This document shows, one piece after another, positions 298 to 26,899 of a stretch of 40,083 nt of DNA. The stretch's first letter is position 1. Each line of letters starts with the position of its first letter. Below the pieces are notes generated by a model. That model searched no databases. It worked only from the letters and a program-made list of their open reading frames with translations, and was not told the origin of the DNA. The DNA comes from an uncultured Elusimicrobiaceae bacterium (lineage in GTDB: Bacteria; Elusimicrobiota; Elusimicrobia; Elusimicrobiales; UBA9959), in assembly GCA_964435105.1 (NCBI GenBank), contig CAYSYJ010000001.1:1-40083 (forward strand), read 5' to 3'. Position numbers and translations under genes: made by a program.

Positions 298-2946
<2,649 letters not shown>

Positions 2947-2970
2947 GGCGGATACGGTCCGCCAGCCAGC

Positions 2971-3098
2971 GGACGGCAGGGTATGCCTTGCCGAGGGACA
3001 TCGCGCAGGACCGAGCTTGCGTAAGCGCGAGGTCCGAGCGAGAGGCGCGCGCACGGTGTGCGCGACGCCGTGCCCGAGGAAGGCATACCCTGTCGGCC
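2971..3098 (+). ncRNA. candidate structured RNA / structured repeat element, copy 1 (three helices)
   Basis: Outer helix is CAGGGTATGCCTT (2977-2989) with AAGGCATACCCTG (3080-3092). Inner helices are GGACC/GGTCC (3008-3012/3031-3035) and GGCGCGCGCAC-GGT-GTGCGCG-A-CGCC (3044-3069). It aligns over its full length with the reverse complement of 26363-26492, with compensatory changes. Confidence 0.55.
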
Positions 3099-3138
3099 GC
3101 TAAGGCGCTAACCTCCGCGCACGCTCGCTGAACGAACA

Positions 3139-4662
3139 GTGGATATGCCCGCTCCTGCCTCCAAGATGCCCAAGAAGATCCCGCCGATCATATTTCCCTT
3201 AGCCACTTCGGTACTGCTCGTCCTCGCCTATCCCAGGTTCGACCTGGGGTGGCTGGGCTGGGCGGCGCTGGGGCCTTTCTGCTGGTTCCTGCTCAACGCG
3301 CGGTCGCTGCGCGAGGCGGCGCTGGGCGGGCTGGTCTGCGGCTTCACGGCCTACCTCGGGCTGCTCTACTGGATCTATCCCACCATGCGGGCCGGCGGCG
3401 TGGGGCCGGCCGTCTCGCTGCTGGGGCTGCTGCTGCTGGCGCTGACGCTGGGGCTGGAGTTCGCGCTGGCCGGGCTGTACGGCTTCCAGCTGCGGCGCGC
3501 CGGGCACAAGGTCTGGCCCTACATGTTCGCGCTGGGCTGGTACCTGCTCGAATACGGCAAGGTCTGGCTGGCCATGAAGGCCGTCTGGTTCCCCTGGTTC
3601 ATGCTGGGCCATACCCAGTGGCGGTACACGGAGCTGATCCAGGTCTGCTCGGTCACCGGCGTCTACGGCCTCGGCGCCGCGCTGGCCTTTACCGCCGCGC
3701 TGGGCGCCGCGGCGCTGCTGCCCTGCGGGCCCGCCTGGCGGCGCCTGCTGCGCTTCGCCCCGGCGCCGCTGCTGCTGCTGGGGCTCTGGTATTTCGGCAA
3801 AGGCGAGCTGGCCCGGGCCGAGCCGCCGGCCCGCACGCTTAAGGCCGCCCTGCTGCAGCCGTCCATAGACCAGTACGCCAAGTGGGACAAAGGGCACGAG
3901 GAGGCCATCCGCGCCGTGATGGAGGAATTGTCCTCGCGGGCTGCCGGGGCCGACCTGGCCCTGTGGCCCGAGAACGCCCTGCCCTGCTGGATGGACGAGC
4001 CGGATTGCGAGGCCTGGGCCTCCACCGCCGCCGCGCGCGGCGCCGGGGCCAGCCTGCTGGGCTCGGTTTCCAAGGGCGGCGGCAGCCATGTCTCGGCCTT
4101 CCTGTTCGACGAGAAAGGGGCGGTAAAGGGCTCCTACGACAAACGGGTGCTGGTGCCCTTCGGCGAGTACGTGCCTTTCCGGGGGCTGCTGGGGCGCTGG
4201 ATAGAGCCGGTGGCCGCGCTGGGGGAATTCAGGCCGGGGCGGCCGGAGCAGCCGCTCCTCGAGGTGAGGGGCTTCAGGCTGGGCGCCGCCATCTGCTACG
4301 AATCCATCTTCCCGCCGCTCTTCGCGGCGGACGCCGCCCGGGGGGCGGACCTGTTCGTGAATATCACCAATGACGGCTGGTACCTGGACACCGCCGCGCC
4401 TTACCAGCACTTCGCGGCCAATGTCTTCAGGGCCGTGGAGACCCGCCGCGCCGTGCTGCGCGCGGCCAATAACGGGATCTCGGGGCTCATAGACCCCTGG
4501 GGCCGCGTCGTCGCGCGCACGGCCCTCGACGAGCGGCTGGTGCTGCCCGCCGAGGCGCCGGCCAATGCCGGGCAGAGCTTCTTCACGCTGTACGGCGGCT
4601 GGTTCGCGGTGGCGGCCCTGCTGGCGGTGGCCGCCTTCCTGATGGCGGTGCTGTTCGGATGA
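3139..4662 (+). CDS. lnt: apolipoprotein N-acyltransferase
   Basis: 507-aa ORF (GTG at 3139; ATG alternatives at 3145 and 3166). The N-terminal half is multi-TM. The C-terminal CN-hydrolase domain carries the Lnt-type block AAICYESIFP...NITNDGWY. Confidence 0.88.
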   Translation: MDMPAPASKMPKKIPPIIFPLATSVLLVLAYPRFDLGWLGWAALGPFCWFLLNARSLREAALGGLVCGFTAYLGLLYWIYPTMRAGGVGPAVSLLGLLLLALTLGLEFALAGLYGFQLRRAGHKVWPYMFALGWYLLEYGKVWLAMKAVWFPWFMLGHTQWRYTELIQVCSVTGVYGLGAALAFTAALGAAALLPCGPAWRRLLRFAPAPLLLLGLWYFGKGELARAEPPARTLKAALLQPSIDQYAKWDKGHEEAIRAVMEELSSRAAGADLALWPENALPCWMDEPDCEAWASTAAARGAGASLLGSVSKGGGSHVSAFLFDEKGAVKGSYDKRVLVPFGEYVPFRGLLGRWIEPVAALGEFRPGRPEQPLLEVRGFRLGAAICYESIFPPLFAADAARGADLFVNITNDGWYLDTAAPYQHFAANVFRAVETRRAVLRAANNGISGLIDPWGRVVARTALDERLVLPAEAPANAGQSFFTLYGGWFAVAALLAVAAFLMAVLFG

Positions 4663-6545: not shown

Positions 6546-7397
6546 ATGGCGACCGTTTTTTCCGAGACTTTGACGCGGCTGCGCAAGGAGGCCGGTTTCC
6601 CGACGGCCTATCGCTTTTTTCACGACAACGGCGGGGCCAAGTTCTTCTCTGTGTCCTACCGCAATTACCTTATGATGGAGCAGGGGCGCAACCTGCCGGC
6701 CCCCGCCAGGCTGCCGCGGCTCATGCTCGGCCTGCGCCAGCCGCAGGGCACGCCGCTGGCCAGTGAGCTGGTGAAGGCCTGGCTGCGCACCATGACCGGA
6801 GACGAGATCTATGCCGACCTGGTGGAGCCGCTGTTCGGCGCCGGTATCTCCGCCCCGGCCGGCTCGCCGGCCGAGGAGGCCCTGCGGCGGAGCATCGCCG
6901 AAAAGAAGTTCCACATGACCGAGGCCCATATCCTGGCCTCGGCGGCCAGCTTCGAGGCCTACAAGTGCTTCTTCGTGATGGAGTTCGACGCCGGCGTCTG
7001 GACCGCGGAGGCCATGGCCAGGGCGCTGCGCATAAAGAAGGCCGAGGCCGAGAAGGCGTTGAAGAGCTTTGTGAAGGCGGGGATGGCGCGGGTCGAGGGC
7101 AGGAAAGGCTACCGCTCGAAGATAGCTGGAATGATGGTGGAGTATCCGGCCGGGCCCGCCCTGCCGCCGGGCATGATGGATAAGCTGAGGGGCTATTTCA
7201 AAAGACTGGAGGCCGAGAGCCGGATAGAGTTCGCCACCGCGGGCATGCTGCGCGCCGACTCCGACGACCTGCGGGGCTACTTCCCCATGCTGAAGTCCAG
7301 CGTAGAGGCCTCTTACGCCTTCAATACCACGGTGAAGACGAAAAAGTCGGCCGGTTTCTTCGTGCTGGGCAGGGTGCTCCGCCTCTGGGACTTCTAG
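6546..7397 (+). CDS. hypothetical protein with an XRE-like N-terminal HTH
   Basis: 283 aa with SD GGGAGGA upstream. The N-terminus LTRLRKEAGFPTAYRFFHDNG...YRNYLMMEQGRNLP resembles a Cro/C1-type HTH. The remainder is not recognised. Confidence 0.6.
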   Translation: MATVFSETLTRLRKEAGFPTAYRFFHDNGGAKFFSVSYRNYLMMEQGRNLPAPARLPRLMLGLRQPQGTPLASELVKAWLRTMTGDEIYADLVEPLFGAGISAPAGSPAEEALRRSIAEKKFHMTEAHILASAASFEAYKCFFVMEFDAGVWTAEAMARALRIKKAEAEKALKSFVKAGMARVEGRKGYRSKIAGMMVEYPAGPALPPGMMDKLRGYFKRLEAESRIEFATAGMLRADSDDLRGYFPMLKSSVEASYAFNTTVKTKKSAGFFVLGRVLRLWDF

Positions 7398-7493
7398 AGG
7401 GGACGCTGATTACTTTATTACTTTTGCTTCGAGGAATGCCCGGTTAGCAAGGGGTAGGTAATGGCAAAAGTAATAAAGTAATCAGCGTCCCCT
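7398..7493. repeat. long perfect hairpin A (30-bp AT-rich arms, 36-nt loop)
   Basis: AGGGGACGCTGATTACTTTATTACTTTTGC (7398-7427) is the exact reverse complement of 7464-7493. It starts 1 nt after the TAG stop of the upstream gene. Confidence 0.9.
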
Positions 7494-7499
7494 AAAGAA

Positions 7500-9077: not shown

Positions 9078-9126
9078 ATATAGGCAGCGCAGTACCGAGT
9101 CCACAAACAGCCGTATGGGAGGAGTA

Positions 9127-10395
9127 ATGTTAAGGAAAGCAGCCGCAGCGTTCGCGATTCTGTCCGTTACCGCAACCCTGGTGTCCGCCGAAATAAGCTT
9201 CGACACCCCCAACAAGTCCACCCTGCAGCAGGAGATAGCCGCCCTGGACATCAATGTCCCGGCCGTTCCTGTCATAGAAGAGGGGAACAAGGCCGCCGCC
9301 AAAGAGTGGACCATCATGGTCTTCCTCAACTCCAAGAACAACCTGGAGCGCTACGGCCTCCTGGACCTCAATGAGATGGAGAAGGTCGGCTCCTCCGATA
9401 AGGTGAACATAGTAGTGGAGATGGGCCGCATCAACGGCTACGCCACCAATGACGGCGACTGGAAGACCACCCGCCGCTTCCTGGTGCAGAAGGACAATGA
9501 CTTCTCCAAGGTGACCTCCCCCGTGCTCGCCGACCTCGGCAAGACCGACATGGGCGACTATAAGAGCCTGATCGCCTTCGTCAAGTGGGCCAAGGCGACC
9601 TACCCGGCCAAGAAGTACGCGCTGATCGTGTGGAACCACGGCTCCGGCTGGGACAAGGGCCGCGCCCTCGAGACCAAGGGCATCTCCTACGACGACGAGA
9701 CCGGCAACCACATCACCACCCCCCAGCTGGGCCTGGCCCTCAAGGAAATGGGCGGCGTGAACGTGTACGGCTCCGACGCCTGCCTGATGCAGATGCCTGA
9801 AGTCACCTACGAGATCAAGGACTATACCGAGTACATCGTGGGTTCCGAAGAGACCGAACCCGGCGACGGCTACACCTACGACCTGTGGCTCGGCCCCGTG
9901 GTCGCCAAGGGCAACATGAGCTCCTACGAGATGGGCAAGGCCGCCGTGGACGGTTACAGCAACCACTACCAGCAGATCGGCCAGGCCTCCACCCAGAGCC
10001 TGCTGAAGAGCTCCGCGCTGCGGGACTTCACGGTGCTGGTCAACGACTTTGTGACCTCCGCCATGGACACCGGCGAGAAGCAGCTGGTGAAGACCGCCGC
10101 TTCCGGCGCCCAGAGCTACGCCGTCTACGACAATAAGGACATGGGCCACTTCTTCGACCGCTACGCGGCTACCACCGCCAACGCGGACGTCAAGATGAAG
10201 GCCCTGGCCCTCAAGAGCTATATCGACGGCTCCCTGATCGTCCATAACCGCGTGAACGGCAACTTCGCCAACGGCAACAGCCACGGCATAGCGGCCTACA
10301 TGCCCGGTTATTCCTTCAACTCCGACTATATGGACCTCGCCTGGGCGCGGGACTCCCAGTGGGACGAGTTCGTGAAGTGGTACCAGGCCAAGTAA
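9127..10395 (+). CDS. secreted clostripain-like cysteine peptidase (MEROPS C11), paralog 1
   Basis: Start moved to ATG 9127 because of SD GGGAGGAG at 9117-9124. Signal peptide is MLRKAAAAFAILSVTATLVSA. The catalytic His block is LIVWNHGSGW and the Cys block is YGSDACLMQM. IVGSEETEPGDGYTY is also conserved. Confidence 0.85.
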   Translation: MLRKAAAAFAILSVTATLVSAEISFDTPNKSTLQQEIAALDINVPAVPVIEEGNKAAAKEWTIMVFLNSKNNLERYGLLDLNEMEKVGSSDKVNIVVEMGRINGYATNDGDWKTTRRFLVQKDNDFSKVTSPVLADLGKTDMGDYKSLIAFVKWAKATYPAKKYALIVWNHGSGWDKGRALETKGISYDDETGNHITTPQLGLALKEMGGVNVYGSDACLMQMPEVTYEIKDYTEYIVGSEETEPGDGYTYDLWLGPVVAKGNMSSYEMGKAAVDGYSNHYQQIGQASTQSLLKSSALRDFTVLVNDFVTSAMDTGEKQLVKTAASGAQSYAVYDNKDMGHFFDRYAATTANADVKMKALALKSYIDGSLIVHNRVNGNFANGNSHGIAAYMPGYSFNSDYMDLAWARDSQWDEFVKWYQAK

Positions 10396-10413
10396 TATAT
10401 AAAGCCTGAAAGG

Positions 10414-10447
10414 GAAGGGCCGGCTTAACCGCCGGCCCTTCTTTTTT
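10414..10447 (+). terminator. intrinsic terminator of peptidase paralog 1
   Basis: GAAGGGCCGGC-ttaacc-GCCGGCCCTTC followed by TTTTTT. Confidence 0.8.
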
Positions 10448-10471: not shown

Positions 10472-10563
10472 GGGGACGTTGGTTAGTTGGTTAGTATTTT
10501 GGCTATGCCGACCGGTAAACCTGAACGCCAAGCGCAAATACTAACCAACTAACCAACGTCCCC
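10472..10563. repeat. long perfect hairpin B (28-bp arms, 36-nt loop)
   Basis: GGGGACGTTGGTTAGTTGGTTAGTATTT (10472-10499) is the exact reverse complement of 10536-10563. G-runs flank the left side and C-runs the right. Confidence 0.9.
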
Positions 10564-10651: not shown

Positions 10652-10690
10652 ATAGGCATGAGCATCAAGCGCAGCCTTACGGAGGACTCC

Positions 10691-12013
10691 ATGATACGCA
10701 AGCTCTCGCTGTCGGCCGTAGCGGTTTCCATGTTCGCCTCGCTGGTCTCTGCCGAGATCGGCTTCGACGGCGCCACCCGGGCGACCCTCTCGGACGAACT
10801 CTCCAATATCCAGGTAGCCGCCGCCGGCGCCCCCGAGGCCGCGCAGGACAAGGGCATTATCGATTGGCTGCTGGGCAAGAAGCAGCCCGCCGAGTGGACC
10901 ATCATGGTCTTCTCCAGCGCCAAGAACGACCTGGAGTCCTTCCTGCTCAAGGACCTCAACGAGATGGAGATGATAGGCTCCTCCGACAAGGTCAATATCG
11001 TGGCCGAAGTCGGCCGCATCGAGGGTTACGATTCCTCTGACGGCGACTGGAAGGGCGTGCGCCGCTACCTCATCACCAAGGACAACGACACTTCCAAGAT
11101 GGGCTCCAAGATGCTGCAGGACCTGGGCATGAAGGACATGGGCGACTACCGCTCCCTGGTGGACTTCGGCAAGTGGGCCAAGGAGAAGTTCCCGGCCAAG
11201 CGCTATATGCTGATAGTTTCCAACCACGGCTCCGGCTGGGAGAAAGGCGTGGAGCGCCCCATCATCACCAAGGGCATCTCCTATGACGAGCAGAGCGGCA
11301 ACCACATCAATACCCCTCAGCTGGGCCAGGCCCTGCGCCAGATCGGCAAGCTGGACGTGTTCAGCACCGACGCCTGCCTGATGCAGATGGCCGAGGTCGT
11401 CTACGAGATCAAGGATTCCGTGGATTACATAGTGGGTTCCGAGGAGACCGAGCCCGGCGACGGCTATACTTATAACACCTTCCTCGGCCCCGTGGTCGCC
11501 CGCCCCACCATGACCCCCAGGGAAGTGGGCAAGCAGACCGTGGACGCCTATAGCGACCATTATGACAGCATCCGCCAGGGCTATACCCAGGCCCTCGCCC
11601 GCGGCGGCGCGGCCGTGACCAACCTGCTGCCCGTGACCAACGCCTTCACCGACGCCGTGATGGCCGCCGGCGAGAAGGAGCTGGCCAAGAGCGCCCGCGA
11701 CGCGGCCCTCTCTTTCGCGATAGAAGAGAACAAGGACCTGTACGACTTCACCCGCCGCGTGGTGGAAGGTTCCCAGAACGCCGACGTGAAGGCCAAGGGC
11801 CAGGCCCTGATGAACTACATAACCGGCACCCTGGTGCTGCACAACCGCACCCGCGATTCCCAGGGCGGCTACTGGAGCGGCCCCGTGCAGTACACCCTGG
11901 CCAAGGGCATGGCGGCCTACTTCCCCAACGCCTCGCTGGGCGCCGGCTACACCGACCTGGCCTGGGCCAAGGCCTCCAAGTGGGACGAGTTCGTGGTGTG
12001 GCTCAACAACTAA
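10691..12013 (+). CDS. secreted clostripain-like cysteine peptidase (C11), paralog 2
   Basis: Start moved to ATG 10691 because of SD GGAGGA at 10681-10686. Signal peptide is MIRKLSLSAVAVSMFASLVSA. The catalytic blocks are LIVSNHGSGW and FSTDACLMQM; IVGSEETEPGDGYTY is also conserved. Confidence 0.85.
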   Translation: MIRKLSLSAVAVSMFASLVSAEIGFDGATRATLSDELSNIQVAAAGAPEAAQDKGIIDWLLGKKQPAEWTIMVFSSAKNDLESFLLKDLNEMEMIGSSDKVNIVAEVGRIEGYDSSDGDWKGVRRYLITKDNDTSKMGSKMLQDLGMKDMGDYRSLVDFGKWAKEKFPAKRYMLIVSNHGSGWEKGVERPIITKGISYDEQSGNHINTPQLGQALRQIGKLDVFSTDACLMQMAEVVYEIKDSVDYIVGSEETEPGDGYTYNTFLGPVVARPTMTPREVGKQTVDAYSDHYDSIRQGYTQALARGGAAVTNLLPVTNAFTDAVMAAGEKELAKSARDAALSFAIEENKDLYDFTRRVVEGSQNADVKAKGQALMNYITGTLVLHNRTRDSQGGYWSGPVQYTLAKGMAAYFPNASLGAGYTDLAWAKASKWDEFVVWLNN

Positions 12014-15168: not shown

Positions 15169-15262
15169 GGGGTCAGGTCTTTACTTTTGACCTTTTCGGT
15201 CAAAAAAATACGGGTGGTCCCGTCCGGGGCTCCCAAAAGGTCAAAAGTAAAGACCTGACCCC
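15169..15262. repeat. long perfect hairpin C (28-bp arms, 38-nt structured loop)
   Basis: GGGGTCAGGTCTTTACTTTTGACCTTTT (15169-15196) is the exact reverse complement of 15235-15262. The arm sequence is the same as in hairpins D and E. Confidence 0.9.
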
Positions 15263-15351
15263 ATTCCCTTGATTGGAGACGGATAAATATAATAGTCTTG
15301 TGGAAGGTAACCCTATAAGGGGGCTCCCGCCCCCGTTTCTGGAGGCAGTTA

Positions 15352-16626
15352 ATGAAGAAGATAGCGATAGCGGTGTTCGCCCTCGCGTTTTCCGCCCAGG
15401 CCGCGCTGGCCGGCGTGAATTTCGACGGCGGCAGGTTCGACCTGAAGCAGGAAATCACTAACCTCGATATCTCCGTGCCCGCGCCCGCGGCCGCCAAGGC
15501 CCGCCCGGACAAGGAATGGACCGTGATGGTCTTCATCAACGCGAAGAACAACCTTGAGAAATACGGCCTCAAGGACATGAACGAGATGGAGATGATCGGT
15601 TCCGGCGACAAGTACAATGTCGTGGTGGAGCTCGCCCGCATCAACGGCTTCGACACCTCCGACGGCGACTGGAAGACCTCCCGCCGCTACCTCGTGCAGA
15701 AGGACAACGAGCCGGCCAAGGTCACCTCCCCGGTGGTGCAGGAACTGCCCTCCGTGGACATGGGCGACTACAAGCACCTCGTCGACTTCGTGAAGTGGTC
15801 CAAGGCCAATTACCCGGCCCGCAAGTACATGCTGATAGTCTGGAACCACGGCGCCGGCTGGATCAAGACCCCGCTGCGCTCCCCGGTGAAGGGCATCTCC
15901 TACGACGACCAGACCGGCAACCACATCACCACCCCCCAGCTGGGCCAGGCCCTCAAGGAAGCGGGCGGCGTGGACGTGTACGGCTCCGACGCCTGCCTGA
16001 TGCAGATGGCCGAGGTGGTCTACGAGCTCAAAGACCACGCCAAGTACATAGTCGGCTCCGAGGAGACCGAGCCCGGCGACGGCTACACCTATAACACCTT
16101 CCTGGCGCCGCTCGCGGCCAAGCAGGACATGGGCCCGGCCGAGCTGGCCAAGGTCACGGTGGACGCCTACAGCGACCATTACCAGCAGATCGGCGAAGGT
16201 TCCACCCAGAGCTATATCCGCACCTCCGCGCTGGCCTCCTACCTGGACGCCTCCAACGCCTTCGCCTTCGCGATAACGCAGGCCGGAGACAAGGAAGTGG
16301 CCAAGCAGGCCATGAGCCAGGCCCAGAGCTACGCCTACCCGGAGAACAAGGACGTCTACCACTTCGCGCAGCTGGTGGCCGGCGCCACCCAGAACGCCGA
16401 CGTGAAGGCCAAGGCCGAGGCCCTGATGGCGAACATCAAGACCAAGGTGGTGGCCCATAACCGCACCAATAACAGCGAGGGCGGCTGGTGGGGCCCCACG
16501 CTCTACGACGACTCCCACGGCATAGCGGCCTACCTGCCCGGTACCGCCGCCCCGGCGCACTACGCCGACCTGCAGTGGGCGCAGTACTCCAACTGGGACG
16601 AGTTCATCGCCTGGCTGGCGCAGTAA
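15352..16626 (+). CDS. secreted clostripain-like cysteine peptidase (C11), paralog 3
   Basis: 424 aa with SD GGAGG upstream and signal peptide MKKIAIAVFALAFSAQAALA. The catalytic blocks are LIVWNHGAGW and YGSDACLMQM; IVGSEETEPGDGYTY is also conserved. Confidence 0.87.
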   Translation: MKKIAIAVFALAFSAQAALAGVNFDGGRFDLKQEITNLDISVPAPAAAKARPDKEWTVMVFINAKNNLEKYGLKDMNEMEMIGSGDKYNVVVELARINGFDTSDGDWKTSRRYLVQKDNEPAKVTSPVVQELPSVDMGDYKHLVDFVKWSKANYPARKYMLIVWNHGAGWIKTPLRSPVKGISYDDQTGNHITTPQLGQALKEAGGVDVYGSDACLMQMAEVVYELKDHAKYIVGSEETEPGDGYTYNTFLAPLAAKQDMGPAELAKVTVDAYSDHYQQIGEGSTQSYIRTSALASYLDASNAFAFAITQAGDKEVAKQAMSQAQSYAYPENKDVYHFAQLVAGATQNADVKAKAEALMANIKTKVVAHNRTNNSEGGWWGPTLYDDSHGIAAYLPGTAAPAHYADLQWAQYSNWDEFIAWLAQ

Positions 16627-16635
16627 CGGGGGAAT

Positions 16636-16710
16636 GGGGTCAGGTCTTTACTTTTGACCTTTTACCCCTCGCAGCATATCTCGAAAGGTCAAAAGTAAAG
16701 ACCTGACCCC
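16636..16710. repeat. long perfect hairpin D (27-bp arms, 21-nt loop)
   Basis: GGGGTCAGGTCTTTACTTTTGACCTTT (16636-16662) is the reverse complement of 16684-16710. It is part of the 16627-16800 duplicated module. Confidence 0.9.
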
Positions 16711-16723
16711 TTAAAATAAAAGA

Positions 16724-16759
16724 AACCGGCCGGGGAGCGATCCCCGGCCGGTTCTTTTT
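16724..16759. terminator. bidirectional intrinsic terminator
   Basis: AACCGGCCGGGGA-gcga-TCCCCGGCCGGTT followed by CTTTTT, with AAAATAAAAGA on the other side. It lies between convergent genes. Confidence 0.8.
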
Positions 16760-16844
16760 GGCCTCTGCGGGAGGGGCTTAAACCCTTTCCTTGGCGGCCG
16801 GGTCCTCGACCTTGGCCTTCTTGGCGGCCGGCACGGCGGCGGGT

Positions 16845-19100
16845 TTAGCGCTGCGCGGCGTAGCTCGCGGCGCAGGCCCCGGGCGTGTCGAAGGCGCGGT
16901 TTTTCAGCCCGTCGGGCAGCGGCAGCCCCTCGAGGCCGCCGGGAGGAGCTTCCAGGCAATCTATCTCGTCCGCCGTGAAATACTTGAGCAGTTTTCCTTC
17001 CAAGTAGCAGCTGTCGCAGCCCGTTATCGCGTTCCATCCCGCGCGGCCGGCCGGCGGGGCCGCGCCCTTGTTGCGCAGGTTGCGTACATAGGCCAACGCC
17101 AGGTAGGCGGAGTAATCCGCCGGCGCTATTATGGTGTCGCCCCACTTCCGGACGGCAAGGTCCATGTCGCCGCCGGCATCCGCCACGGACCTGTAGCCGG
17201 AGGCGGGCGTGCCGTAGGAGCGCGCGGCCCAGGCGCGGCTGGAAATGAACAGCTGGTAATCCCCGTAAGCTTCGGCGCGGTTATTGTTGCCTATCCCGGA
17301 GAAAAGATAATCATAGGCGCCGTACAGGAGATCTTCTTCCTGGGGGGTGTTCGAAGAAGTGGAAAGTTTTATCCCGCTCAGGGCTTCCAGCTCCTTCGGC
17401 GCCAGGGCCATGCCGGCATCCAGCACGCGCTTGAGGCGTCTCTTGCCCAGGCGCATTATCACCGGCGGGGGTATGGCTTCCAGCTCCAGTAACAGGCGGG
17501 TTTCTTCGTCTGAAAGCCCGCCGGCGGCCCGCCTGTGCGAGGCCATGTTGTCAGAGGAAAGTTCTCCCACGCCGCGCCCGAGGCGCTCTTCGGCGGGATG
17601 CAGCCAGGTCCCGCGGCCGTCCTTAAGGTGACCCAACAGCAGTGCCGCGTAGGCGCGCGTGCCGGCCAGCTTGGCGGCCAGCCGCTGGTCGGCAAGGGAG
17701 ATGGCGGACACGGCTTTAAGGCCGCGCGGGTAATCCGTCACCAGGTAAGCCGTGGCCAGGGCCAGTTTCCGCGGTGAGCCGGAGTTGTGTCCGGCGACGG
17801 CGGCGGCCAGGCCGAAGCCCTCCACGTCTATGGTGGCGGCCTCGGCGGGCAGGGCCCGCAGGTAGGCCGCCGTTTCGGCGAGCGGGCTGGCGACGGCCTG
17901 GTGGCAGCCGGAGGAGCCGGGTGGCGCCAGCGGGTTGGGGATGAGCAGCTTCTCGCCGGAATCGCCGATATAGCAGTAGGGATAGGCGAAGGTGTACGGG
18001 GTGTGGTAGGCGAGGCTGCCGGCCGAGCCCGCGAAATAGAGTTCGTCGAACGAAACCCCTGACTTGAGCAGGGCGCTTACGGTGGCCCCGAGTATGTCCC
18101 CGTACCAGCTGTCTTCCGCCGCCACCGCCACATAGGTGGAGGTGCCTATCTCGGCCGAGAAGGCCTTGAAGCCTTTCCCGGACTTCTCTTTCTTTATATA
18201 AGGCGCGAACTCCTCGCGCAGTTCGCGGTAGTAGCCGAGCAGGAGGCCCCGGAAAGAGCGGGGCAGGCCGGACTCGAACGCGGCCAGCACGCCGGGGCAG
18301 GGCTTGGCGGGCGCGGGCCGCGCGTCCACCAGCACTTCGGGCTCAAGGCCGCGCTCCGCCAGCAGCAGGCCGTATACCCGCAGCACGTGAGCGAACCAGG
18401 AGGCGCCCGCGAAATCGCACAGGACCAGCGCGGGCTTTTTCCCGCCGGTGAGGTAGGCCTGGAAGCCGTAGGTGGAGCCGGGAACGCGCAGGGACCTGAC
18501 CTTGCCCTGCTCCGCGCCGGCCAGGGCCAGGGCGTCGGCGGCGGGCCCCCGGGAGAAGATGACGCGCGCCGGGGCGCTGCCGGGGCGCAGAAGCGCGCCC
18601 AGCGGGCCGGCCTGGGCGGCTACGTAGGAGGCGACGTCGTGCATGGGAAGCGTTTCGCCCGGCAGGGAGCGCACTTCGGGGGGAAAGCCGGCCGCCGCCG
18701 GGGGCGGGTCCGGCAGGCGGCCGGCGTTGGCCGGTTCCGCCAGGCGCTCGCCGGAAACGTAGAAATACGCGCCGGTATCCTTTACGGCGGAATCGAACGC
18801 CTGCCGGGCGCCGCCTTTAAGCCCGGCGCAGGAGGCGGCCTGCGAGCTTATCCGGCGCAGCAGGTCGTCCAGCCGGGGATTGCTCCCGGTTTTTTTAAGC
18901 GCTTTTTTCTCCGCCTCGGAGAAACAGTCGCGGGGGACCGCCGGCTCCCCGCCGGAATAGCGAGAGAGGTAGTACGATATGCTGCGCGAATAAGCCGCGG
19001 CCACGCCGGCAGCCACCCCCGGCGGCAGTCCGGCTTCCGAGGCGTGCGGGAGGGCGGGGAAAAGTAAAAGGACCGCGGCGGCTCGCAGGAGGCTTTTCAT
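16845..19100 (-). CDS. large secreted hypothetical protein (751 aa), function unknown
   Basis: Signal peptide is MKSLLRAAAVLLLFPALPHASEA. The central part weakly resembles a nucleoside phosphorylase/nucleosidase fold, with FAGSAGSL, IDVEGFGLAAAV and AYLVTDYP in the expected order. The C-terminal domain is not recognised. Confidence 0.7.
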   Translation of the reverse strand: MKSLLRAAAVLLLFPALPHASEAGLPPGVAAGVAAAYSRSISYYLSRYSGGEPAVPRDCFSEAEKKALKKTGSNPRLDDLLRRISSQAASCAGLKGGARQAFDSAVKDTGAYFYVSGERLAEPANAGRLPDPPPAAAGFPPEVRSLPGETLPMHDVASYVAAQAGPLGALLRPGSAPARVIFSRGPAADALALAGAEQGKVRSLRVPGSTYGFQAYLTGGKKPALVLCDFAGASWFAHVLRVYGLLLAERGLEPEVLVDARPAPAKPCPGVLAAFESGLPRSFRGLLLGYYRELREEFAPYIKKEKSGKGFKAFSAEIGTSTYVAVAAEDSWYGDILGATVSALLKSGVSFDELYFAGSAGSLAYHTPYTFAYPYCYIGDSGEKLLIPNPLAPPGSSGCHQAVASPLAETAAYLRALPAEAATIDVEGFGLAAAVAGHNSGSPRKLALATAYLVTDYPRGLKAVSAISLADQRLAAKLAGTRAYAALLLGHLKDGRGTWLHPAEERLGRGVGELSSDNMASHRRAAGGLSDEETRLLLELEAIPPPVIMRLGKRRLKRVLDAGMALAPKELEALSGIKLSTSSNTPQEEDLLYGAYDYLFSGIGNNNRAEAYGDYQLFISSRAWAARSYGTPASGYRSVADAGGDMDLAVRKWGDTIIAPADYSAYLALAYVRNLRNKGAAPPAGRAGWNAITGCDSCYLEGKLLKYFTADEIDCLEAPPGGLEGLPLPDGLKNRAFDTPGACAASYAAQR

Positions 19101-19179
19101 CGTTATCGGGCTCCGGTCGTCGGCGGTAAAATGCCGGCGTTCGGCCTGATCCTATATTATAGACAAAACCCGGGGGAAT

Positions 19180-19254
19180 GGGGTCAGGTCTTTACTTTTG
19201 ACCTTTTACCCCTCGTAGCATATCTCGAAAGGTCAAAAGTAAAGACCTGACCCC
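19180..19254. repeat. long perfect hairpin E (copy of D)
   Basis: Identical to hairpin D except for one loop base (C to T). It is part of the 19171-19344 duplicated module. Confidence 0.9.
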
Positions 19255-19267
19255 TTAAAATAAAAGA

Positions 19268-19303
19268 AACCGGCCGGGGAGCGATCCCCGGCCGGTTCTT
19301 TTT
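19268..19303. terminator. intrinsic terminator (copy of 16724-16759)
   Basis: Same AACCGGCCGGGGA-gcga-TCCCCGGCCGGTT stem with T-runs. It lies downstream of the minus-strand membrane protein gene. Confidence 0.8.
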
Positions 19304-19322
19304 CGCCCCTGGAAGGAGGGGC

Positions 19323-26104: not shown

Positions 26105-26350
26105 ATGGACCTTAGCCAGATAAAACCCGCTAAAACGGTGGACGCGCGCTCCATGGCCTGTCCGGGCCCCCTGCTCGAGGCCAAAAAGGGCATAGCCGGC
26201 GTGCCGGTGGGCGGCGTGCTGGAGATCATGTCCGGCGACAAGGGCAGCCGCGAGGATATCCCGGCCTGGTGCGGCAAGTCCGGCCACGAGTACCTGGGCG
26301 TGCTCGAGCGCGACGGCTACGACAGCCTCTTCGTCACCCGCAAAAAGTAA
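26105..26350 (+). CDS. tusA: TusA/SirA-family sulfur carrier
   Basis: 81 aa with SD AGGAGGA upstream. The CPxP active-site block is DARSMACPGPLL. Confidence 0.85.
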   Translation: MDLSQIKPAKTVDARSMACPGPLLEAKKGIAGVPVGGVLEIMSGDKGSREDIPAWCGKSGHEYLGVLERDGYDSLFVTRKK

Positions 26351-26362
26351 CCGGGTGTCGCG

Positions 26363-26492
26363 GCCCGACCGGGGTATGGGGTCTTCGGGCACGCGGTCGG
26401 CAACACCGTTGCCGCCGCTTGTCGCTCGGGCTCGGCGCTTACGTAAGCCTCGCCCTGCGCTACATCCCTCCGCCCCCATACCCCGGCCGGGC
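26363..26492 (-). ncRNA. candidate structured RNA / structured repeat element, copy 2 (opposite orientation)
   Basis: Its reverse complement aligns with 2971-3098. The outer 13-bp helix is 26369-26381 with 26474-26486. Single-stranded blocks are conserved and all three helices covary. Confidence 0.55.
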
Positions 26493-26512
26493 CTTTAGGA
26501 TCGCAGGACTTT

Positions 26513-26899
26513 TTGCGCATGACTCAGAAAAAAATATTAATAATTACCACTAATCACAGTTCCTATCCCGGCGCGGACGCCGTGGGCCAGGCCCGCCTGG
26601 CTTACAGCGCCAACACCTACGTTATACGCGTCCCCGACCCCGTCATGTTCCCCGAGGACTTCTACCTCAGGGCCTTCGACAAAGGCATAGGCGGCATCAT
26701 CATCATGTCTTCCGGCTCCGACTGCCCCTACGAAGGTGCCTATGAGCGCCTCTCCAAGCGCGTGGCCCGTGTCTACGAAAAAATGAAGGCCAAGGGTATC
26801 GCCGTCAACCGCCTCAAGCTCACTACCATCTGCACCGTCTGCCGCGCGGCCTTCCTCAAAGAAATTTCCGAAATGGAAAAGGCGGTGGCGGCGGTATGA
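26513..26899 (+). CDS. MvhD/FlpD-like protein with degenerate cluster ligands
   Basis: 128 aa (TTG at 26513 or ATG at 26519). It has the FlpD-like layout KILIITTNHSSYPGADAVG...VIRVPDPVMF...GIIIMSSGSDCPYEGAY, but most canonical Cys positions are replaced. Confidence 0.6.
   Translation: MRMTQKKILIITTNHSSYPGADAVGQARLAYSANTYVIRVPDPVMFPEDFYLRAFDKGIGGIIIMSSGSDCPYEGAYERLSKRVARVYEKMKAKGIAVNRLKLTTICTVCRAAFLKEISEMEKAVAAV

Follow-up and report, generated by a model that had tools for sequence, protein, structure and literature searches.

A dispersed, strand-specific structured repeat family in intergenic spacers of uncultivated Elusimicrobia

The window analysed here is a 40,083-nt stretch of DNA from an uncultured Elusimicrobiaceae bacterium (assembly GCA_964435105.1, contig CAYSYJ010000001.1, positions 1 to 40,083). 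It carries two copies of a GC-rich structured element of about 135 nt, one in the spacer between secA and the apolipoprotein N-acyltransferase gene lnt (copy 1) and one, on the other strand, between a tusA-family sulfurtransferase gene and an flpD/mvhD-like gene (copy 2). A first-pass annotation, made from the sequence alone, had described a two-copy element in which paired substitutions pointed to selection on an RNA fold. The two copies belong instead to a dispersed, structured and strand-specific repeat family, outside Rfam and the literature searched, of which a covariance model finds about 150 copies in metagenome-assembled genomes (MAGs) of Elusimicrobia and in metagenomes.

The two copies in the window and the anatomy of the element

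Copy 1 lies 19 nt past the secA stop codon and 36 nt ahead of lnt, and is sense to both genes. Copy 2 fills the tusA-flpD spacer in antisense to both of its neighbours, with 9 nt left to the tusA stop and 22 nt to the flpD ATG (26519), or 16 nt to an alternative listed TTG start (26513). The gene order around the flpD-like gene is kept in L058, L059 and L062 (L followed by a number labels the comparison loci). As had been reported, the copies match end to end (2950-3120 of the forward strand against the reverse complement of 26340-26515, with 80% column identity) and both contain all of the conserved blocks named at that time; these block patterns occur together at the two sites only within the window, where shuffled sequences lead one to expect 0.02 or 0 matches. 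The location given earlier was right, while the length (2971-3098 and 26363-26492) fell slightly short of the limits set by the covariance model (Table 1).

Both copies share one fold, in which an outer stem of ~22 bp (P1) closes a three-way junction with two hairpins. Folding energies are -90.8 and -92.0 kcal/mol for copies 1 and 2, respectively, with z scores of -7.1 and -6.6, and none of 200 shuffled sequences was equally stable. The fold is unchanged under DNA energy parameters, and with RNA and DNA parameters alike the modelled strand is more stable than its complement by 6-9 kcal/mol. Between the copies, 25 of the 31 unpaired columns are identical, against 60 of the 106 paired ones. On the family structure, nine in-register double changes separate them; the first count of about ten was correct, since further ones are masked where the outer stem is shifted in register by 1 nt. 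Because the differences sit in the stems and are compensatory, the copies are not recent duplicates with random differences. Helix 2 of the first-pass annotation is better described as a 9-bp helix with tandem G.A/A.G pairs and a 10-nt loop, UURCGUAAGC. Finally, the judgement that the element is neither coding, nor a simple terminator, nor a chance palindrome is upheld; no U-run directly follows the hairpin, and terminators with a U-run occur elsewhere in the window.

Table 1. Positions of the element, its helices and its flanking genes, with family subtypes and examples of copies that carry the optional hairpin (MFE, minimum free energy; ORF, open reading frame; window coordinates unless a comparison locus is named)
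Feature	Position and strand	Description
Copy 1	2966..3102 (+)	Covariance-model limits; 116.9 bits, E 1e-20
Copy 2	26360..26496 (-)	Covariance-model limits; 118.1 bits, E 5.6e-21
P1 outer stem, copy 1	2968-2989 / 3080-3101 (+)	MFE structure; P1 pairs covary across the family
P1 irregularities, copy 1	A2973, G3096; G2976.U3093 (+)	A2973 and G3096 unpaired, one G.U; MFE structure
P2, copy 1	2995-2999 with 3070-3075 (+)	GGGAC at 2995-2999; junction-proximal helix; MFE structure; family pairs
P2b, copy 1	3001-3004 with 3038-3041 (+)	UCGC with GCGA; junction-proximal helix; MFE structure; family pairs
P2/P2b family pairs	Alignment columns 29-38/72-76/107-110	Covariation analyses of both alignments
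P3 hairpin, copy 1	3008..3035 (+)	GGACC-GA-GC / GC-GA-GGUCC, tandem G.A/A.G
P3 tip, copy 1	3015-3028 (+)	GCUUGCGUAAGCGC; GUAA tetraloop at 3021-3024
P4 hairpin, copy 1	3044..3069 (+)	GGCG-CGCGCAC (GGU) GUGCGCG-A-CGCC, bulged A3065
P4 tip, copy 1	3052-3060 (+)	CACGGUGUG; invariant in the family; pairs 83-89/93-99 covary
P1, copy 2	26493-26474 with 26381-26362 (-)	
P3, copy 2	26455-26428 (-)	
P4, copy 2	26418-26393 (-)	Bulged A26397
secA	298..2946 (+)	ORF with SecA Pfam domains, SecA cluster representative; 5' neighbour of copy 1
lnt (apolipoprotein N-acyltransferase)	3139..4662 (+)	Pfam LNT_N, CN_hydrolase; 3' neighbour of copy 1
tusA-family sulfurtransferase gene	26105..26350 (+)	Pfam PF01206; 2185 homologues; stop abuts 3' end of copy 2
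flpD/mvhD-like gene	26519..26899 (+)	Pfam FlpD; start adjoins 5' end of copy 2
Subtype A		GGGUAUGGGUUCGGCGGG ... GUGCCCGAC; aligned copies
Subtype A'		AUGCCUUCG ... AAGGCAU, with CGUACCCGG; aligned copies
Subtype B		GGGUUAGCAAAACC ... GUUUUGCGUUCC; P2 replaced wholesale by AAAA/UUUU; aligned copies
Optional-hairpin copies	L013 5906-6065; L014 3495-3652; L029 2383-2558	Examples
Optional-hairpin copies	L034 398-553; L039 6813-6971; L050 5114-5274	Examples

Across the family, the inner half of P1 is conserved within subtypes, while its outer ~10 bp vary by copy with complementarity kept. P2 has a consensus of 4 bp, and P2b and P3 are stacked. P3 comprises 9 bp, including the tandem G.A/A.G, which differs by one position among variants, and is capped by GCUURCGUAAGCGC, which holds both the GUAA tetraloop and a self-complementary UURCGUAA. 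P4 consists of a 7-bp stem and a GGU loop that form the invariant tip CACGGUGUG, followed by an invariant bulged A and 2-4 further pairs. The P3 tip is invariant in the 19 seed copies of the covariance model and near-invariant in 96 metagenome copies, which are no independent test of this block because the scan pattern required it. Copy 1 of the window has an A'-like P1, with AUGCCUU/AAGGCAU as the inner part of its outer stem, and its P3 and P4 are exactly the ones found in a B copy of L054. Some copies include an optional hairpin of 20-45 nt at one fixed internal site after P3, in several cases GUG-GA-GC(GAA)GC-GA-CAC, with tandem G.A and a C(GAA)G triloop, followed by UUUCUUG; these inserts give the family a modular build.

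Two further structural candidates were rejected. A longer hairpin reaching into the flanks, with a median span of 203 nt, proved to be an artefact of chance pairing: pairing between true flanks does not exceed that of mismatched partners outside the ~8% of copies with an extension of the outer helix, so that the unit is really about 135 nt long. A G-quadruplex in the G-rich 5' arm was likewise dropped, as the motif is found in subtype A only and is absent from copy 1 of the window and from subtype B.

A dispersed family with a fold conserved on one strand

The covariance model, R1, was built from 19 full-length copies and detects none in the window besides the two already known. When one genome per species was scanned with an exact pattern, 56 loci resulted, ~40 of which have the 26-nt spacing of the element; these ~40 copies are confined to 14 MAGs, with at most nine copies in each, labelled Elusimicrobia, Elusimicrobiales, Elusimicrobiota or unclassified 'bacterium'. 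R1 recovers 52 copies from the pattern-scan loci. In metagenomes, the pattern scan gave at least 120 loci, and R1 finds 96 copies in 80 loci among the matches listed. More copies lie in loci retrieved via neighbouring proteins, and viral contigs contain none. The range of the family is a GC-rich clade of uncultivated Elusimicrobia (Elusimicrobiales), in whose intergenic spacers the copies reside. MAGs with the family include JAMPXK01, JAJZPL01 and JACRER01, and the lineage of L067, with ~51% GC, is one of those without it. In sequence that was not chosen for the element, the density is roughly one copy per 20-60 kb, from which a load on the order of 50-150 copies per genome can be roughly extrapolated, assuming a genome of ~3 Mb. 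At least nine contigs end inside a copy, which is the expected effect of repeats that break assemblies, and knowledge of such repeats aids the binning and scaffolding of Elusimicrobia genomes.

In Rfam 15, no match at gathering level was obtained over the whole window, in agreement with the earlier impression that the element is not SRP RNA, 6S RNA, RNase P or a common riboswitch, and permissive searches (E<=10) around each copy returned chance-level hits only (E 0.9-9, far below gathering). The families without a match include SRP, 6S, RNase P, riboswitches, known ribozymes, HEARO and IS605-related RNAs, and four related loci were likewise without a match. The literature searched holds no description of such an element in Elusimicrobia. 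A large and cleanly defined structured repeat family is thereby added to a phylum known almost only from metagenomes, and a covariance model with about 150 aligned members now exists for it.

The three-way-junction fold is kept by compensatory changes, on one strand. Among the 19 seed copies, 87.5% of the cells are paired, against 74.6% after shuffling; double changes affect 31 of the 53 pairs, and the covariation score is 0.32, compared with ~0.06 for slid partners. For the 96 metagenome copies among the matches listed, the corresponding values are 88.1% against 62.9%, 46 of 51 pairs, and 0.52 against 0.06-0.09, with the pairing somewhat inflated by the fitting of this alignment to the model. 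The numbers of pair types and double changes are far beyond every control, and about 150 further homologues keep the pairs proposed for the window copies. In the 52 genome copies, non-Watson-Crick combinations assign the fold to one strand, with G.U outnumbering A.C (142 vs 53) and G.A outnumbering C.U (151 vs 11). The earlier reading of the covariation therefore stands as far as the fold is concerned, conserved far beyond chance, and does not by itself establish an RNA gene. Covariation alone is not proof of RNA, because REPIN hairpins, which are predicted for single-stranded DNA, also carry compensatory changes (PMC3116915). Textbook covariation in 46 of 51 pairs of an element that behaves like repeat DNA is a caution for RNA discovery in general.

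Mutation rather than selection might also produce such changes. Quasi-palindrome correction is an established mutational mechanism, and neutral or selfish palindromes without any recognised fold could acquire seemingly compensatory changes through quasi-palindrome template switching and arm-to-arm gene conversion, while conversion between copies would spread modules. The homogenisation of paralogues within genomes is in line with this, as are the whole helices swapped between orthologous copies (window and L188, in the secA-lnt spacer) and the modules common to subtypes (P3 and P4 of copy 1 being those of the B-type copy in L054). Correction should, however, erase imperfections, and the bulged A, the tandem G.A, the U.G pairs and the asymmetric junction are kept through ~150 copies and three subtypes. 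Moreover, the tips and junction strands are near-invariant though unpaired, as the column counts for the window pair illustrate, and strand asymmetry is unexpected from a symmetric DNA process. An origin of this kind is accordingly held to be improbable.

The same pairing data bear on the possibility that the element works as a double-stranded DNA site, with the 12-bp palindrome GCTTACGTAAGC and the neighbouring blocks as operators for a dimeric or nucleoid-associated protein and with the long inverted repeats incidental or cruciform-promoting. BIMEs, for instance, bind integration host factor (IHF) and gyrase. About half of the copies have a P3 tip that is perfectly palindromic over 12 bp, and copies lie in spacers beside gene starts and ends in either orientation; in the other half the palindrome is imperfect (GCTTGCGTAAGC), and a duplex site would not explain why four separate helices show compensatory changes or why G.T is in excess over A.C on one strand. 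This makes a duplex site very improbable.

Placement, orientation and turnover in intergenic spacers

All copies are intergenic, and in many cases no more than 2-20 nt separate them from the gene on either side. The alternative of a structured non-coding RNA family has to be set against these surroundings. Conceivable roles for such a family are those of a small RNA that dimerises or binds a protein, of an element for processing or stability, or of a self-cleaving ribozyme of a new type; it would be made by read-through or from unrecognised promoters, and would be multi-copy and homogenised in the manner of rRNA and tRNA genes. It would account for the very strong covariation in every helix and for the wobble-rich pairing of one strand, where G.U is 2.7 times as frequent as A.C, as well as for the two tandem U.G pairs conserved in the commonest subtype, the GUAA tetraloop, the tandem sheared G.A motifs and the conserved junction nucleotides. 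The UURCGUAA of the P3 tip is self-complementary, with an A/G variation that keeps A-U or G.U, which would fit a kissing dimer, and many copies occupy the same site in several species. The loops of the optional hairpin, C(GAA)G and UUCG-type, also cap ordinary RNA terminators of these genomes; for this reason, the use of GNA triloops as an argument for DNA was dropped.

With regard to transcription signals, the upstream AT profile is flat, without a positional AT-rich box, and no conserved T-run follows downstream. Promoter-like TANNNT motifs within 30 nt are found upstream of 48 of 135 copies and downstream of 36 of 137, with no signal at a fixed distance, and runs of at least four T within 40 nt occur downstream of 32 of 137 copies and upstream of 43 of 135. 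The copies thus show no conserved promoter- or terminator-like signal at a fixed distance, and neither a fixed-distance promoter of a recognisable type nor the defined 3' end of an independent small-RNA gene was found. For the copies that lie only 2-20 nt from both genes, there is no room for transcription signals of their own.

As to orientation, the 117 copies that are not part of an adjacent pair converge with the gene on their 3' side in 54 cases against 27 (p=0.004) and have no bias relative to the gene on their 5' side (39 vs 33). In spacers between co-directional genes, 19 copies are antisense and 9 sense, copy 2 of the window belonging to the former class and copy 1 to the minority. 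In such operon-like spacers the modelled strand is therefore antisense twice as often as sense, and transcription of most of these copies would yield the complement of the modelled strand. The antisense excess may come from selection by the host to keep the most stable hairpin out of mRNA, or from strand-specific insertion. Adjacent pairs follow a strict rule: all 14 are arranged head-to-head, the (-) copy first and the (+) copy second, an order with a chance probability of 0.25^14; their gaps range between -2 and 129 nt, and the members of a pair are usually of different subtypes. Head-to-head neighbours with gaps down to -2 nt are hard to reconcile with RNA genes, as are the presence or absence and the inversion of whole units at orthologous spacers, described next, and the lack of an Rfam family. 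In sum, an RNA gene is not established and for many of the copies is unlikely, and a structured RNA family as the explanation of the repeat as a whole is considered doubtful.

Comparison of orthologous spacers gives a picture of the turnover of the copies. In the window, L010, L035, L058 and L059, the tusA-flpD spacer is occupied by a copy that is antisense throughout, and in L062 a decayed 3' half alone remains. At secA-lnt, the window and its closest relative, L188, both carry a (+) copy; P2b, P3 and P4 of the L188 copy all differ from those of copy 1, and the inner part of the outer stem is common to both. The L188 subtype, including its 5' leader, is present in the secA-lnt spacer of L064 with the whole unit in the opposite orientation; L065 and L066 have an unrelated hairpin of ~190 nt at this place, and L067 has a small terminator only and no element. 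Between asnB and spoU, L064 and L066 each have a copy and L065 has an empty spacer of 33 nt. The L035 copy is, in addition, 88% and 85% identical to paralogues of the same MAG, against 81, 76, 73 and 61% to its orthologues, and has a 23-nt insert in common with the paralogue L014. From the filled, empty, inverted and decayed spacers and from the likeness of the L035 copy to its paralogues, it follows that copies come, go, change orientation and are homogenised within genomes.

Two of these loci have features of their own. The L062 contig is labelled Rectinemataceae (Spirochaetota), and its tusA-flpD-hdr-like operon, with the element remnant at 10247-10416, encodes a TusA that is 90% identical to that of the window, which suggests that the contig is mis-binned or that the operon was horizontally transferred. 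At L065 940-975, the empty asnB-spoU spacer contains a perfect 14-nt palindrome, GGTCCGGCCGGACC, at the site that the element occupies in relatives; it may have been left behind by an excision or may be a palindromic target.

Known systems, the favoured explanation and other repeats

In its behaviour, the family is most like REP/REPIN and ERIC-type repeats, while the defining features of each are lacking. REPs (repetitive extragenic palindromes) and REPINs are likewise high-copy, extragenic, GC-rich imperfect palindromes that form within-genome families with strand-specific imperfections, and they occur as singlets and inverted doublets, as do the copies described here (14 of 14 adjacent pairs inverted). 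Compensatory changes are common in REPIN hairpins, predicted for single-stranded DNA (PMC3116915), as in the present hairpins. The differences lie in the unit, a 135-nt three-way junction compared with a 20-40-nt hairpin for REPs; in what is conserved, the inner tips with a most variable foot here, and the basal 16-mers with a variable spacer in REPINs; and in the lack of a GTAG/CGTC tag. ERIC, BOX, Correia and MITE-like repeats (MITE, miniature inverted-repeat transposable element) are imperfect palindromes of 100-200 nt in intergenic, often co-transcribed spacers, found in both orientations, with modular inserts at fixed internal sites and with positions often common to related genomes. All of these properties match. 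ERIC, BOX and Correia repeats are set apart by their terminal inverted repeats (seen here in a subfamily of ~4% only) and target duplication, and by the branched core, invariant loops and strict head-to-head rule of the present family; they come, moreover, from other phyla, and the distinction is drawn from these traits and the lack of an Rfam match, without direct sequence comparison.

Resemblances to systems that act on folded single strands are more partial. The ends of IS200/IS605 elements are imperfect, strand-specific hairpins that contain a bulged base and are recognised on a single DNA strand, and these elements have neither inverted terminal repeats nor target duplications; multi-copy structured derivatives (PATEs) exist. 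Orientation-specific insertion of this type could explain the head-to-head pairs. However, one closed hairpin spans the present element in place of separate left and right end hairpins, no tnpA, tnpB or iscB adjoins any copy, and the Rfam models for IS200/IS605 RNAs and TnpB/IscB omega-RNAs are unmatched. The inverted terminal repeat of adeno-associated virus (AAV, a parvovirus) is a GC-rich T- or Y-shaped hairpin of ~125-145 nt that exists as folded single-stranded DNA in two inverted orientations; it is the telomere of a linear single-stranded DNA virus and works together with a Rep protein and a nicking site. The present copies are chromosomal, intergenic and multi-copy, with no viral-contig match and no Rep gene, and the resemblance would be one of shape only, an analogy and not a homology. 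Like integron attC sites, the element may be defined by the structure of a folded strand, with extrahelical bases and, in attC, sometimes a branched variable tip; attC itself was rejected, as the aligned copies contain no RYYYAAC/GTTRRRY core sites and are dispersed between core genes in both orientations, not set in same-orientation arrays after cassette ORFs. Resemblances to the SRP Alu domain, hammerhead and twister found no support in the sequences or in Rfam. Among interspersed palindromic repeats, the branched invariant-tip core, the variable complementary feet and the head-to-head rule are unusual.

We tentatively favour, with a probability that falls a little short of even, a REPIN- or MITE-like non-autonomous repeat whose functional form is a folded single strand, probably of DNA. 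Single-stranded DNA is preferred because the modelled strand often cannot be transcribed together with the neighbouring genes, because there is neither room for nor sign of a promoter of its own, because the pair rule, turnover and concerted evolution match REPIN-like or IS200/IS605-like elements, and because REPIN hairpins offer a documented case of compensatory changes in predicted single-stranded DNA (PMC3116915). According to this explanation, a trans-encoded enzyme, most likely of HUH/Y1 type or a similar single-strand recombinase, would recognise the invariant tips and the bulged-A hairpin, and would move or copy the element and insert it in a set orientation beside existing copies, giving rise to pairs. 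Arm-to-arm templated correction and gene conversion may contribute to the upkeep of stem complementarity. The host would carry the copies mostly as passengers at gene ends, and selection on orientation would disfavour the most stable hairpin in mRNA.

Several observations weigh against this explanation. No transposase, RAYT/Y1, TnpB or recurrent mobile gene was found beside any of the ~150 copies in two rounds of all-against-all ORF clustering, with Pfam annotation of recurrent ORFs and a Y1/HUH motif search, a single IS30-family gene apart (see below). Over ~1.4 Mb of flanks, there was neither a HUH/Y1-like ORF by motif search nor a recurrent small ORF, so that no candidate for the enzyme emerged, RAYT included. 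By clustering and Pfam, the neighbours are housekeeping genes (MacB, TypA, FliG-like, AcrB, PorP and radical SAM), and the ORFs between flanking copies in L108, L123 and L118 encode a membrane protein and unrelated products. Target-site duplications are absent, direct repeats at the boundaries being at chance level (k>=2 in 11 of 132), and conserved termini, CGGCAGGY...RCCTGCCG, are present in 5-6 of 134 copies only (a subfamily of ~4%). The outermost stem varies, and the terminal inverted repeats and target duplication of a DDE-type MITE were thus not found; it is the interior of the hairpin that is conserved and not the ends, the reverse of REPINs and MITEs. A three-way junction that combines conserved junction purines, a GNRA tetraloop, tandem G.A and conserved tandem U.G is more typical of structured RNAs than of the single-stranded DNA recombination sites known so far. 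Movement was not directly observed, and the many positions common to several species would also fit a function for the host. The association of orientation with GC skew is borderline (51 vs 72, p~0.05-0.07) and was not used. As to the IS30-family transposase gene, the only one beside any copy, it lies at 96-1103 of L108 and ends 78 nt from the copy at 1182-1319; its proximity is probably coincidental.

It is also possible, though rather unlikely, that the family represents an undescribed system, either a new class of structured RNA or a new single-stranded DNA recombination site served by an enzyme of Elusimicrobia. In the former case, a protein scaffold, a dimer formed through UURCGUAA kissing loops or a self-cleaving ribozyme riding on the repeat are conceivable, and in the latter, a T-shaped three-way-junction fold with invariant hairpin tips. 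If the RNA alternative were true, the family would be a new and abundant RNA class. If the element does act as single-stranded DNA, the invariant tips and the bulged-A hairpin would suggest that an enzyme recognising them awaits discovery, and the branched recombination substrate would be unlike REPs.

Other repeats were noticed during the analysis. A second family of hairpin repeats is present in the window at 7392-7499, 10472-10563, 15169-15268, 16630-16710 and 19174-19254, after gene ends. It is built of a GGGG(A/T)C ... G(A/T)CCCC clamp around AT-rich arms of 25-36 nt that differ by copy, for example GGTCTTTACTTTTGACC. At L002 425-692, a copy of the three-way-junction element is split at the site of the optional hairpin by an insert of ~255 nt with perfect 33-bp terminal inverted repeats (AGTGTAGCGTCTCGCAAATGGCTTTACTTTTGA), whose arms have CTTTACTTTTGA in common with the second family; this family therefore looks mobile and able to nest in the element. 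A hairpin of ~190 nt, GGCGCCGTCATGCTCCCTGT ... ACAGGGAGCATGACGGCGCC, is mutually conserved in the secA-lnt spacers of L065 (12640-12850) and L066 (12630-12800), has no Rfam match and may be a third repeat or RNA family.

Larger repeats also occur in the window. Positions 16627-16767 and 19171-19311 are a direct repeat of 141 nt, 98% identical, which flanks a gene at 16845-19100 (-), and each repeat contains a terminator-like hairpin (AAAAGAAACCGGCCGGGGAGCGATCCCCGGCCGGTTCTTTTT) and a hairpin of the second family. Finally, three paralogous genes of the clostripain family (Peptidase_C11), 70-80% alike at the DNA level, lie at 9115-10395, 10658-12013 and 15352-16626, and similar tandem Peptidase_C11 sets are found in L064, L065 and L188.

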